This document shows, in pieces, positions 44,190 through 47,945 of a stretch of 64,000 nt of DNA (its first letter is position 1; each line of letters starts with the position of its first letter). Source of the DNA: Roseibium sp. (lineage in GTDB: Bacteria; Pseudomonadota; Alphaproteobacteria; Rhizobiales; Stappiaceae). The notes beneath the pieces were generated by a model that saw only the letters and a list, made by a program, of their open reading frames with translations, made no database searches and had not been told where the DNA came from. The DNA lies in NCBI RefSeq assembly GCF_048261595.1, contig NZ_JBLXFW010000007.1, positions 6,180 to 70,179 on the forward strand. The letters are read 5' to 3'. Made by a program: the position numbers and the translations under genes.

Positions 44190-45404
44190 TCAGACGCCCA
44201 TCGCCCTGGCAAGGTTTTCGTCGATCTTGTCGAGAAAGCCGGTTGTCGTCATCCAGCCCTGATCCGGTCCGACCAGAAGCGCCAGATCCTTGGTCATGTA
44301 GCCGCTTTCAACCGTATCGATACAGACCGTCTCGAGCGTCTTGGCGAAGCGTGCTAGCTGGTCGTTGCCATCGAGCTTGGCACGGTGGGCAAGCCCCCGG
44401 GTCCAGGCGAAGATAGAGGCGATGGAGTTGGTCGAAGTGCTCTCGCCCTTCTGGTGCTGGCGGTAGTGGCGGGTAACCGTGCCGTGCGCCGCTTCCGCTT
44501 CCACGGTCCGGCCATCCGGAGACATGAGAACGGATGTCATCAGGCCGAGGGAGCCGAAGCCTTGCGCCACCGTGTCGGACTGGACATCGCCATCGTAGTT
44601 CTTGCAGGCCCAGACATAACCGCCCGACCATTTCAGCGCGCTGGCGACCATATCGTCGATCAGGCGGTGCTCGTACCAGATGCCGGCATCGGCGAACCTG
44701 TCCTTGAACTCCGCCTCGTAGATTTCCTGGAACAGGTCCTTGAAACGGCCGTCATAGGCTTTCAGAATCGTGTTCTTGGTCGACAGGTAGCAGGGCACCT
44801 TGCGGTTCAGCGCATAGTTCATCGAGGCCCGGGCGAAATCGCGGATCGAGTCGTCCAGGTTATACATGGCCATGGCGACCCCGGAGGAGGGGGCGTCGAA
44901 GACATCGCGTTCGATGGTCTGGCCGTCTTCTCCGACGAACTTGATGGTCAGCTTGCCCTTGCCGGGGAAAGTAAAGTCGGTGGCGCGGTACTGGTCGCCA
45001 TAGGCGTGGCGGCCGACGATGATCGGCTGGGTCCAGCCCGGCACCAGGCGCGGTACGTTCTGCATGATGATCGGCTCGCGAAAGATCACGCCGCCAAGAA
45101 TATTGCGGATGGTGCCGTTCGGAGAGCGGTACATGCGCTTGAGGCCGAATTCTTCGACACGGGCCTCATCCGGGGTGATCGTCGCACATTTCACGCCGAC
45201 GCCGTGCTTCTTGATTGCCTCTGCCGCATCAACGGTGATCTGGTCGTCGGTCTCGTCGCGCTTCTGGATCGACAGGTCGTAATAGTCCAGATCGATGTCG
45301 AGGTACGGATGGATCAGCTTGTCCTTGATGAACTGCCAAATGATCCGGGTCATCTCGTCGCCATCGATATCGACAACCGGGTTCGCTACCTTGATCTTCG
45401 CCAT
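44190..45404 (-). CDS. icd: NADP-dependent isocitrate dehydrogenase, dimeric (eukaryote-like) type
   Basis: [45 protein letters not shown]; 404 aa. Confidence 0.97.
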
Positions 45405-45474: not shown

Positions 45475-45505
45475 CACCTGGTGCGATCGTCCCCAACGCC
45501 CCGAA

Positions 45506-45970
45506 GCGGAGCATAGCCCAGTCCACCCACCAAACGCCGTCCCGGGTTTGATCCGGGACCAGAGAGTTTGACGGGGTCAGAGCGAAGGAAACCTTGCGGT
45601 GCGAGGGTTCCCGGATCTCAGCTCCGCTTCCTCCGGGAAGGCGCAAGGGCGGATCGCCCGATCGGTTCAACTCCGAGAATGACGTGAGCATGTGGCAAAA
45701 CCACGACACCAACCCGGCCGTCATCCCGGACGCAGCGAGGCGGAGCACAGCCCAGTCCACACACCAAACGCCGTCCCGGGCTTGATCCGGGACCAGAGAG
45801 TTTGACGGGGTCAGAGCTAAGGAGACCTTGCGGTGCAAGGGTTCCCGGATCTCCGCTGCGCTTCCTCCGGGAATGCGCAAGGGCGGGTCGCCCGATTGGT
45901 TCAACTCCGAGAATGACGTGAGCATGTGGCAAAACCACGACACCAACCCGGCCGCCATCCCGGACGCAGC
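45506..45970. repeat. Two-copy 234-bp tandem duplication containing REP doublets
   Basis: GCGGAGCA..GCCCAGTCCAC..CAAACGCCGTCCCGGG starts at 45506 and again at 45740; the copies differ by scattered substitutions. Confidence 0.92.
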
Positions 45971-46402
45971 AAAGCGAAGATCCGGGACCCACTTGCAGGC
46001 CCGCGTGCTGAAGCGCTGGCGTGTTGTGACACGGCCTTCCGTACGACAATTCCTCACCTGATCCGCTCTGCAAGCGAGTGGGCCCCGGATCTCCGGCTGG
46101 GCCTTCGTCCGGGGTGACGGTGATAATGCGGAGTACAGCCCCGGCCACACGCTAGGTGCCGTCCCGGACATGATCCGGGACCAGGAAATTCGGCGGGGCA
46201 CGCAAAACGAAAGGTTGCGGCGTAAGGGTTTCCGGATCTCCGGCTACGCCGTCGTCCGGGGTGACGGAAGCATCTTTGGCAAGGGCAGGCCCCAAGCCCA
46301 GACTTGTCACCCCAGCGAAGGCTGGGGTCCAGTACGCGGAGACCTCTCAATGCAATCAACCACCGAAAGCGGATACTGGATTCCAGCCTTCGCTGGAATG
46401 AC
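45537..46402. repeat. Cluster of five REP doublets (REPIN-like, CGTC/GTCA-tagged palindromes)
   Basis: Inverted pairs such as CCGTCCCGG..GATCCGGGACC with GGTTCCCGGATCTC..CCGGG, and GTCACCCCAGCGAAGGCTGGGGTCCAG with CTGGATTCCAGCCTTCGCTGGAATGAC. Confidence 0.8.
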
Positions 46403-46620
46403 AATGGATGGGGGGCAAATTCGAATGCCGGCCTCATGCTGACAGTGAGCAGAGACTTGCGGATCGATGCAAGGGCAGTGCGGCACAGCTTTTCCTCACT
46501 CAGGACAAGGCAGCACAAGAGCTCCGAAACACCCTTGTGCCTCCTCGATTTCCCACAACCTTCTGAAATCATTGCCTCCGAAATCCTTTGTCCCCCACCC
46601 CTCTGACCTGGCTTACACTT

Positions 46621-47031
46621 GGTGCTGTTCTCGCCGTCACGGGGCCCTGAGTGGACCGACCGTTCGGGGCGGCGGGAGCCGGAGGTCAGGAGCACCTATC
46701 CGGGATAACGGACCGGTAGCGCGCTCCGGCGGATCGCTCAAGCCGAAGGCGCCACGGGTGACAGACGTGGGGCAGCCCGGTCAGAGAGGCGACGGGTCGG
46801 GGAGAATTGACAGCCCTCCCCGCAGTCCGCAGTGGCACGCGGATGGAAACCTTAGCGCTCGGCGAGATGCCTGGGACAGGCCTTCGGGCAGGCGGGACGC
46901 CTTGCCACTCACCCAACCAACCCAATTCGCCCGGCAAGCGCCGGGTGCCTGCCATCCCGTTCGGATCGAGCGGAGACACACTGCCGGAACGCCGGAGGCA
47001 AGCCTCGCGGCGCTATTTGTGCTGGTGAGGC
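46621..47031 (+). ncRNA. Candidate large structured non-coding RNA (unassigned)
   Basis: About ten helices found by eye, several with G-U pairs on + only; a C(UUCG)G tetraloop; a 7-nt loop-to-downstream complementarity; a terminal hairpin; no credible ORF. Confidence 0.5.
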
Positions 47032-47034
47032 CAA

Positions 47035-47071
47035 TTGACAGGCGAATTTATCTGACTTAAGTCAGATAAAT
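47035..47071 (+). promoter_or_regulatory. Promoter/operator of the MarR-GNAT gene
   Basis: TTGACA at 47035-47040; perfect 26-bp palindrome ATTTATCTGACTTAAGTCAGATAAAT at 47046-47071, just before the ATG. Confidence 0.8.
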
Positions 47072-47072
47072 C

Positions 47073-47945
47073 ATGATCGACGATATCTTCCGCTTCCGAC
47101 GCTTCAGCCGGGCCGTGACCACAGAGGTCGGGGCCCTGGATACCTCTTTCCTCGGGCGGGGCAGGCCGCTTGGCGCCGCCCGCGTTGTCAATGCCATCGG
47201 CCATGGCCGGGGCGATGTGGCGGCAATCCGAGCCTACCTCGGACTTGATTCCGGATTGATGAGCCGCCTTCTCAGGTCTCTTGAGGAGGAAGGCCTTGTG
47301 ACGGTCGATGCCGACGAGGAGGACGGTCGCAGGCGCCGGGCGCGTCTGACCGGCAAGGGTGAGGCAGAGTTCGCCGAATACGAACGTCTTTCAGACGAGC
47401 GGGCGAGAGAAATCCTGTCCCGCCATGCCCGGCCGGATGCCCTGCTGGCAGCCATGGACCTGATCGCCTCGGCTCTTGGCAAGGAGGGGTGGGACATGTG
47501 CGAAATGGACCCTCGGGATCCGGCGAGCGTGCACTGCCTCGAACAATATTACGCCGAGCTGAACAGCCGTTTCGATACCGGTTTCGACGTCACGCTGTCC
47601 GCTGATCCGGACGCGGAAGACATGCTGGCGCCGCGAGGCTGTTTTCTCGTCTGCTTTTCGGATGGCCTTCCGATCGGTTGCGTTGGCCTCAAGGGAACCG
47701 ACAAGGGCTATGCGGAGATCAAGCGGCTCTGGGTGTCTCCCGCCGCTCGTGGTCTCGGGATGGCCAAGCGCCTGATGGAGGATGTGGAAGCTCGTGCGCG
47801 AGGCCTCGGCATATCGCTCCTGCGGCTCGATACCAATTCCAGGCTTCCCGAAGCCGTGAAGCTCTACCAGACGTCGGGATGGACGGAGATCGACCGCTTC
47901 AACGATGATCCCTATCCGGACCATTTCTTCGAAAAGGCGCTTTAG
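47073..47945 (+). CDS. Bifunctional MarR-type HTH regulator / GNAT acetyltransferase
   Basis: LGLDSGLMSRLLRSLEEEGLV..DGRRRRARLT wHTH; AEIKRLWVSPAARGLGMAKRLM GNAT motif A. Confidence 0.9.
   Translation: MIDDIFRFRRFSRAVTTEVGALDTSFLGRGRPLGAARVVNAIGHGRGDVAAIRAYLGLDSGLMSRLLRSLEEEGLVTVDADEEDGRRRRARLTGKGEAEFAEYERLSDERAREILSRHARPDALLAAMDLIASALGKEGWDMCEMDPRDPASVHCLEQYYAELNSRFDTGFDVTLSADPDAEDMLAPRGCFLVCFSDGLPIGCVGLKGTDKGYAEIKRLWVSPAARGLGMAKRLMEDVEARARGLGISLLRLDTNSRLPEAVKLYQTSGWTEIDRFNDDPYPDHFFEKAL

Follow-up and report, generated by a model that had tools for sequence, protein, structure and literature searches.

The window, by which we mean the whole stretch of 64,000 nucleotides that was analysed (C7:6180-70179, where C1, C2 and so on denote contigs), comes from a 4.23-Mb assembly that is 94% complete. 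The unit studied here lies inside a 1.67-kb intergenic gap, which is flanked on one side by a gene of the isocitrate/isopropylmalate dehydrogenase family and on the other by a gene encoding a MarR-GNAT fusion protein. The positions of these genes, of the conserved unit between them and of its parts are collected in Table 1, together with the other copies of the unit in the same genome. At 47025 the similarity to these copies breaks off sharply. The unit shared with relatives extends from about 25 nt upstream of a conserved CTTATCC block to the end of a T-rich tail; in one related genome (G031) it measures about 460 nt and its boundaries are sharp on both sides.

A preliminary description of this stretch, made from the letters alone, had placed a candidate RNA next to a REP cluster, and the two do adjoin. 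Within the cluster, about 234 bp are duplicated in tandem (45487-45745 versus 45721-45979, 92% identical). A separate repeat module with REP-like palindromes occupies 45951-46120, reaching to 46268 in some copies; it is present upstream of every own-genome copy of the RNA and also occurs at C2:133482-133648. In this copy and in two others, the module is separated from the RNA unit by an inserted palindromic hairpin (46286-46421), which is long and near-perfect. The Rfam model WsnRNA46 (RF02625) matched this palindrome with 45.8 bits (E = 5.6e-8; gathering score 65.3), and it looks like a repeat of the REPIN/MITE type, not like an sRNA gene. As the upstream module stands beside every own-genome copy, the RNA genes of this genome travel within a non-coding mosaic of 1.2-1.6 kb. 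This dispersed-repeat nature of the stretch had been absent from the preliminary account. On the other side of the unit, a perfect 26-bp palindrome (ATTTATCTGACTT/AAGTCAGATAAAT, 47046-47071) reaches to within 1 nt of the MarR-GNAT start codon (47073) and probably serves this MarR-type protein as an autoregulatory operator.

Table 1 Features of the locus, elements of the conserved unit and further copies in the same genome
Feature	Position	Strand	Description
Isocitrate/isopropylmalate-dehydrogenase-family gene	44190-45404	minus	other flank of the intergenic gap
Whole conserved unit	46587-47025	plus	promoter-like region, RNA body of ~400 nt, terminator-like hairpin and tail
Upstream block	46587-46593	plus	CTTATCC in the family, TTTGTCC in the window; every position at least 90% conserved in 44 sequences
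-10-like hexamer	46614-46619	plus	TACACT, in the family TAtacT; T, A and final T at least 90% conserved in 44 sequences
P1	46627-35/46671-79	plus	9 pairs, 5 changed on both sides, 95.5% paired
P2, hairpin inside P1	46644-54/46660-70	plus	stems covary
P3, long-range helix, 5' strand	46680-46685	plus	CCGGAG; partner 46881-46886
P4, long irregular hairpin	46689-46727	plus	46689-93/46723-27 and 46700-03/46713-16
Variable central domain	46728-46870	plus	~140 nt; aligns poorly between species, length and sequence differ
P3, long-range helix, 3' strand	46881-46886	plus	CCTTCG; partner 46680-46685
P7, core of the 3' domain	46887-46953	plus	helices 46887-94/46946-53 and 46901-06/46933-38
P8, small hairpin	46957-46973	plus	CCGTTCG GAT CGAGCGG; hairpin here in all copies, sequences differ
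Terminator-like element	46990-47025	plus	hairpin 46990-98/47003-12 with one bulged G, then U-rich tail
MarR-GNAT fusion gene	47073-47945	plus	flank of the gap, 48 nt downstream of the RNA unit
Own-genome copy	C2:121520-121989		99% identical (46556-47025 compared)
Own-genome copy	C1:1360379-1360847		93% identical (46556-47025 compared)
Own-genome copy	C2:603543-603972		93% identical (46556-47025 compared)
Own-genome copy	C1:1586163-1586631		91% identical (46556-47025 compared)
Own-genome copy	C4:337575-338043		85-88% identical (46556-47025 compared)
Own-genome copy	C1:1244130-1244588		middle replaced by different sequence
Own-genome copy, eighth	C5:70322-70780		divergent

Copies in the genome and distribution among relatives

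Eight copies of the unit were found in the own genome. Six of them are full, that of the window among them; another is degraded, and the last is a divergent paralog. The full copies are 85-99% identical to the window copy. The paralog is nearer to the genus consensus, as seen in its -10 region (CCGTATCCT) and in the stretch GCAGAAAAG, and follows a Lys/Ala-rich histone-like gene and its terminator; it is probably the ancestral copy of this genome. Runs of N and partial duplications of the element's 3' or 5' end occur at C2:121417-121520 and C2:603972-604108, each beside a copy, and the assembly is unresolved at the repeats around these two sites.

Full-length homologues of 430-520 nt are present in other species of the genus. 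Family members were detected with a covariance model of the 3' domain, according to which 29 of the 72 genomes of the genus (Roseibium-like) are carriers with 1-20 copies each, and carriers within the Stappiaceae amount to 44 of 132 genomes, belonging to five of ten genera, and have roughly 250 copies between them. A second covariance model, built from the most divergent members, gave only three marginal matches outside the family when 401 genomes of the order were searched. As judged from these searches, the RNA family is restricted to Stappiaceae, marine Alphaproteobacteria. Its members split into two classes, and the whole architecture described below is common to both.

One explanation for this distribution is that the unit is a selfish, non-autonomous mobile element, the conserved structure of which serves its own propagation and not a cellular function. 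The patchy occurrence in many copies, numbering 0-20 within one genus and sitting at non-homologous loci, fits such an element, and so do the sharp unit boundaries in G031, the high identity of the copies within a genome and their embedding in REP-type repeats, here in the form of the repeat mosaic. Several observations speak against it. Six species have a syntenic copy beside an HxlR-type gene, as would be expected if it was inherited vertically. An inverted-repeat scan found no terminal pair on the RNA unit, and no target-site duplication was seen at the junctions of copies with unique flanks; an identification as a MITE was rejected on both counts. Matches to PF07282 (TnpB), PF00078 (reverse transcriptase) and PF01797 (Y1/RAYT) were all lacking in the own genome (94% complete assembly) despite its abundant REP-type repeats, and an IS110 gene is likewise missing there. 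Simple retro-copying of a transcript would offer no explanation either, since the unit includes its predicted promoter. To these points the evidence for selection on the RNA itself, given below, has to be added. We therefore regard a primarily selfish element as improbable, and propagation of this kind would in any case be compatible with a cellular function and not exclusive of one.

Conserved elements of the RNA fold

All helices listed in the preliminary description can be drawn in the window; comparison across homologues, however, retained some of them and replaced others. In the conserved fold, the covarying helix P3 clamps a 5' domain (P1/P2 and P4) to a 3' domain (P7, P8 and the terminator hairpin). 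The window copy is able to form all conserved helices, with a folding energy of -180.7 kcal/mol.

A 12-pair helix had been proposed at 46627-38/46668-79. It is conserved across 22 homologues, in the shortened form of the 9-bp helix P1. The P2 hairpin enclosed by P1 carries a conserved ACCGW loop (46655-59), the tip GGACCGNCC being nearly invariant. P3 joins sites that are 200 nt apart, GCCTTCGG with CCGGAGGT (46680-87). In the A2 alignment, its eight columns are 96% paired and four pairs are changed on both sides; at three positions such both-side changes were counted in 10-11 of the 22 sequences (GC, UA, CG and AU). The helix is retained in class 2 as CCGGGC/GCCCGG, and a conserved single-stranded YGGGAMA stretch (46872-78) precedes its 3' strand.

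The bulged stem noticed earlier at 46696-46719 is conserved across the 22 homologues as well and corresponds to the P4 hairpin. P4 is capped by a 9-nt loop (46704-12; GAUAACGGA in the window) with a conserved GUAACG motif, which is found at the tip in 43 of 44 sequences; most members have it in a form readable as a GNRA tetraloop with a closing G-C pair. When the sequences were compared without gaps and anchored at the loop, pairs 1-8 of P4 were canonical in 31-41 of the 44, and up to six types of pair occurred. CTCCGGC had been suggested to alternate between two GCCGGAG copies. This was discarded: the family model pairs 46723-27 with 46689-93 in P4 and assigns 46991-97 to the terminator as its 5' arm. 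According to the alignment, P3 and the terminator arm do not vary together in relatives.

The central domain differs between lineages in length and sequence. In the MAFFT alignment, local hairpins of the own-genome subfamily (46752-56/46766-70, 46798-804/46816-22 and 46826-30/46839-43) are not retained throughout the family, and the central domain of the own-genome copies is unlike the genus consensus.

In the 3' domain, the helix GGCAGGC/GCCTGCC (46887-93/46947-53) was recovered across the 22 homologues as part of P7. Among 73 distinct sequences P7 is 96-100% paired, and most of its positions are changed on both sides. It displays a pyrimidine-rich, single-stranded loop of about 26 nt (46907-32), in which ACCCA occurs twice. 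The P7 loop of class 1 is C/U-rich, with YCCCA in every class-1 loop inspected, and that of class 2 is A/U-rich (GAAGAAACA...). P7 has two mismatches in the window copy, as it does in C2:121520 and C1:1244130, and all three also have an alternative local hairpin (46930-45); judging from these mismatches the window copy itself may be decaying or drifting. P8 takes the form CCGTGG...CCACGG in other own-genome copies and CCCGTTCG...CGAACGG or CCTGCCC...GGGCAG in relatives.

The remaining helices of the preliminary description, pooled, were paired in 51% of cells, which is no better than shuffled and slid controls. The GGTGCT/AGCACC helix and CCCGGC/GCCGGG (46930-45) are among the helices that jointly give this figure and thus found no support in the family. 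A UUCG-capped hairpin, GCC(TTCG)GGC, was paired in 59% of cells and is replaced by P3 in the family. The terminal hairpin drawn at 47002-31 is not conserved either; the 3' hairpin of the family is formed by 46990-47012. A pseudoknot between 46831-37 and 46903-09 had also been proposed, but this pairing is not conserved and competes with the conserved helix CCUUGCC/GGCAAG. The hairpins at 46752-70 and 46957-73 are a separate case: relatives, too, have a hairpin at the corresponding position, and the low counts are uninformative owing to misalignment by MAFFT. Altogether, the earlier interpretation is supported in substance, while about half of the structure drawn with it is not conserved.

Tests of structure and strand

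The minimum folding energy of the 411 nt was -194 kcal/mol, compared with -193.4 +/- 6.7 kcal/mol for dinucleotide shuffles (z = -0.08), and the minus strand gave z = +0.13. Taken as one piece, the stretch is thus no more stable than expected by chance, an outcome that the preliminary description had itself named as speaking against a functional RNA. In a sequence of 65-68% GC folding energy is not decisive, and this result is outweighed by the comparative evidence.

Fifty pairs were scored in the MAFFT alignment (22 sequences) and were 96.3% paired. Nineteen of these 50 pairs were changed on both sides, compared with 9.5 +/- 1.7 in shuffles (none of 500 reached 19) and with 5-8 when the 3' partners were slid. 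A model-guided alignment of 73 distinct 3' domains was paired in 96.4% of cells, and 15 of its 22 pairs were changed on both sides versus 2-5 after sliding; this alignment leans towards the covariance model, whereas the MAFFT result for 22 sequences is independent of it. The claim of a large structured RNA is thereby upheld, as there are homologues and covariation in the core helices far exceeds that of the controls. As read from these alignments, the fold is maintained by compensatory substitutions. A blind search for extra covarying column pairs, such as pseudoknots, yielded no credible new pair, and the split between class 1 and class 2 swamped the signal.

It had also been proposed that the RNA is read from the plus strand. 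G·U pairs outnumber A·C combinations by about nine to one (121 versus 13 cells), and pairing would drop from 96% to 86% if the opposite strand were read. This excess identifies the plus strand as the RNA strand and, together with helices joining sites 200 nt apart, indicates selection on RNA and not on DNA hairpins; both features argue against the selfish element considered above.

These counts also bear on the possibility that the helices arose by chance in GC-rich DNA and that the conservation reflects nothing but recent duplication. Folding z-scores of about 0 on both strands and the many helices of the preliminary description that were not conserved would agree with it. Homologues with identities down to about 70%, also from other genera, nevertheless keep the core helices through compensatory changes far above controls, and the covariation counts have already refuted this explanation.

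Promoter-like and terminator-like signals

The TACACT hexamer that had been pointed out 2 nt before 46621 does end at 46619, and TAnnnT is nearly invariant at this place in the family. TAnnnT is the pattern expected for a working -10 element. The conserved RNA body starts 7-8 nt downstream of the hexamer. Further upstream, the CTTATCC block may represent a -35-like element or an activator site. In 44 sequences the spacer between this block and the hexamer was fixed in length (19-20 nt) and variable in sequence; a spacing of 19-20 nt to TAnnnT is long for sigma-70.

At the 3' limit of homology lies the terminator-like hairpin with its tail. The nine pairs of the hairpin are 97-98% paired and 4-6 of them are changed on both sides. 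The U-rich tail reads CUAUUUGUGCUGG in the window (47013-25) and is conserved in the family as GGNUUUGUGCUGG. A scan of the locus for simple consensus signals of the E. coli type called neither a promoter nor a canonical terminator; we attribute the missed terminator to the bulged stem.

Identities examined for the unit

No Rfam 15 model reached its gathering score anywhere in the window, nothing overlapped 46556-47031 up to E = 10, and 17 divergent homologues gave no relevant match at E <= 1. The unit thus belongs to no RNA family catalogued there, by gathering score or by E-value, as had been anticipated. ARAGORN called no tRNA or tmRNA gene in 24 family members, and the tmRNA of this genome lies elsewhere (C2:134796-135147). 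A coding gene was rejected: the frames yield Arg/Pro/Gly-rich junk, neither frames nor stops are conserved, and no Pfam match was obtained. The long frames on the plus strand, one of them of 451 aa, are such junk fused by chance to a downstream gene of the glyoxalase type. An exact-pattern scan with a 21-mer across genome contigs returned only chance matches, in unrelated phyla. Plasmid and phage collections contained no match to the RNA unit, and literature searches on non-coding RNAs of Roseibium, Labrenzia or Pseudovibrio brought up no such RNA.

As a structured RNA present in many copies with a patchy distribution, like HEARO and omega RNAs, the unit might serve an enzyme of a mobile element as partner or guide RNA. 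Omega RNAs, bridge or seek RNAs of IS110/IS1111, retron RNAs and ORF-less group II introns were considered. In G031, about 30 nt separate one copy from the stop codon of a preceding IS110-family transposase gene (L192, G031:C1:751000-755000), this gene being split by an insertion sequence with a DDE transposase and standing directly upstream of the RNA copy. This adjacency was found at one of about 100 loci, at an interrupted gene, and the own genome is devoid of a homologue, so that a bridge or seek RNA was rejected and the neighbourhood is considered coincidental. With respect to the other candidates, a TnpB/IscB omega RNA was dismissed as the genome has no PF07282 match and the RNA models did not match, and a retron RNA or group II intron for want of PF00078 in the genome and of an Rfam match; the Rfam models HEARO, IS605-orfB, Intron_gpII, group-II-D1D4 and retron msr all gave no match. 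Beyond orthologous loci, no gene or ORF is conserved next to the copies. A role as partner RNA of a mobile-element enzyme is therefore largely refuted and has very little probability left.

The position of the unit, 48 nt upstream of a co-oriented gene and with a terminator-like hairpin at its end, would also suit a riboswitch or other cis-acting leader that controls the gene behind it, in this case MarR-GNAT (47073). Yet the downstream genes are unrelated among copies and species and often lie on the opposite strand, and the survey of gene neighbourhoods already contradicts this reading. A riboswitch or cis leader was rejected given these unrelated neighbours in mixed orientation. In addition, the unit has promoter-like signals of its own, its length of about 400 nt far exceeds that of known aptamer-plus-platform units, and the palindrome at 47046-71 already provides a plausible MarR operator. 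We consider a leader function highly unlikely, even slightly more so than a partnership with a mobile-element enzyme.

Discussion

The element at 46587-47025 is best explained as a stand-alone, structured ncRNA gene of about 400 nt on the plus strand, which belongs to an uncatalogued Stappiaceae family and likely has a trans-acting regulatory or scaffolding role; we assign this reading as a whole a probability of roughly 0.6. That the unit is a genuine structured RNA gene is considered considerably more certain. The RNA would be transcribed from its own predicted promoter and ended by its own predicted intrinsic terminator. As no neighbouring gene is conserved, it would be expected to act in trans, most likely as a regulatory RNA or as a scaffold of an RNP.

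The exposed, conserved P7 loop beside the terminator hairpin is the most plausible candidate for a recognition surface, for a G-rich RNA or for a protein, and ribosome-binding regions are an example of G-rich targets that it might contact. This role is deduced from the composition and exposure of the loop, which in class 2 is A/U-rich instead, and a trans-acting regulatory mode mediated by the loop is accordingly put forward as a tentative suggestion, with the odds rather against it. A compact tertiary fold, which the structured 5' domain would provide, is suggested by the arm with its GNRA cap, by the clamp helix and by single-stranded stretches that are invariant. A bolder proposal is that arm, clamp helix and multi-way junction define a new class of catalytic RNA or RNP scaffold, the gene of which multiplies itself with no enzyme encoded by the element. 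We find this somewhat less likely still than loop-mediated regulation; if true, the unit would be a self-multiplying RNA gene and not a classical transposon.

Among known systems, a cuckoo RNA unit is a short pair of hairpins, 60-100 nt in length, whose loop motif is CCUCCUCCC. The cuckoo RNAs (alpha-r14/CcsR family, PMC4615179) resemble the Stappiaceae RNA in being an alphaproteobacterial family of sRNA genes that multiplies into unrelated intergenic regions, and in having C/U-rich loops able to pair with G-rich targets. The RNA described here differs from them by its size of about 400 nt, its multi-domain fold, a loop of the YCCCA type and the missing Rfam match. MITEs and REPINs, too, are dispersed, non-coding, multi-copy units among REP clusters. 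In contrast to these, the Stappiaceae unit has no terminal inverted repeats or target duplications, the genome contains no RAYT gene, and strand-specific G·U pairing together with long-range covariation indicates a function at the RNA level. The large orphan ncRNAs OLE, GOLLD, ROOL, HEARO, raiA and smtA ('Soda Lake' RNA, PMC11109978) are similar in size (>350 nt), in having many covarying helices, one of them long-range, and a GNRA-type loop, and in a narrow taxonomic range with no obvious cis-regulatory role. The Stappiaceae RNA matches none of their Rfam models, neither in sequence nor in structure. Unlike those RNAs it can reach 20 chromosomal copies in a genome and lacks phage or plasmid matches, and it has no associated ORF, whereas HEARO is accompanied by IscB and OLE by OapA.

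The family is thus a new, lineage-restricted, large structured ncRNA that is absent from Rfam 15. To our knowledge, bacterial structured RNAs of more than 350 nt with solid covariation support are rare, and every earlier class of such size that we know of turned out to represent unusual biology once it was studied. The covariance models and alignments obtained here (R1, R2, A2, A4 and A7) could seed a database entry. With up to 20 copies per genome and no linked protein gene, the family provides a new RNA fold whose structure and function can be studied. Its two classes, variable centre and different display loops also make it a tractable case for learning how a complete RNA gene multiplies and diversifies.
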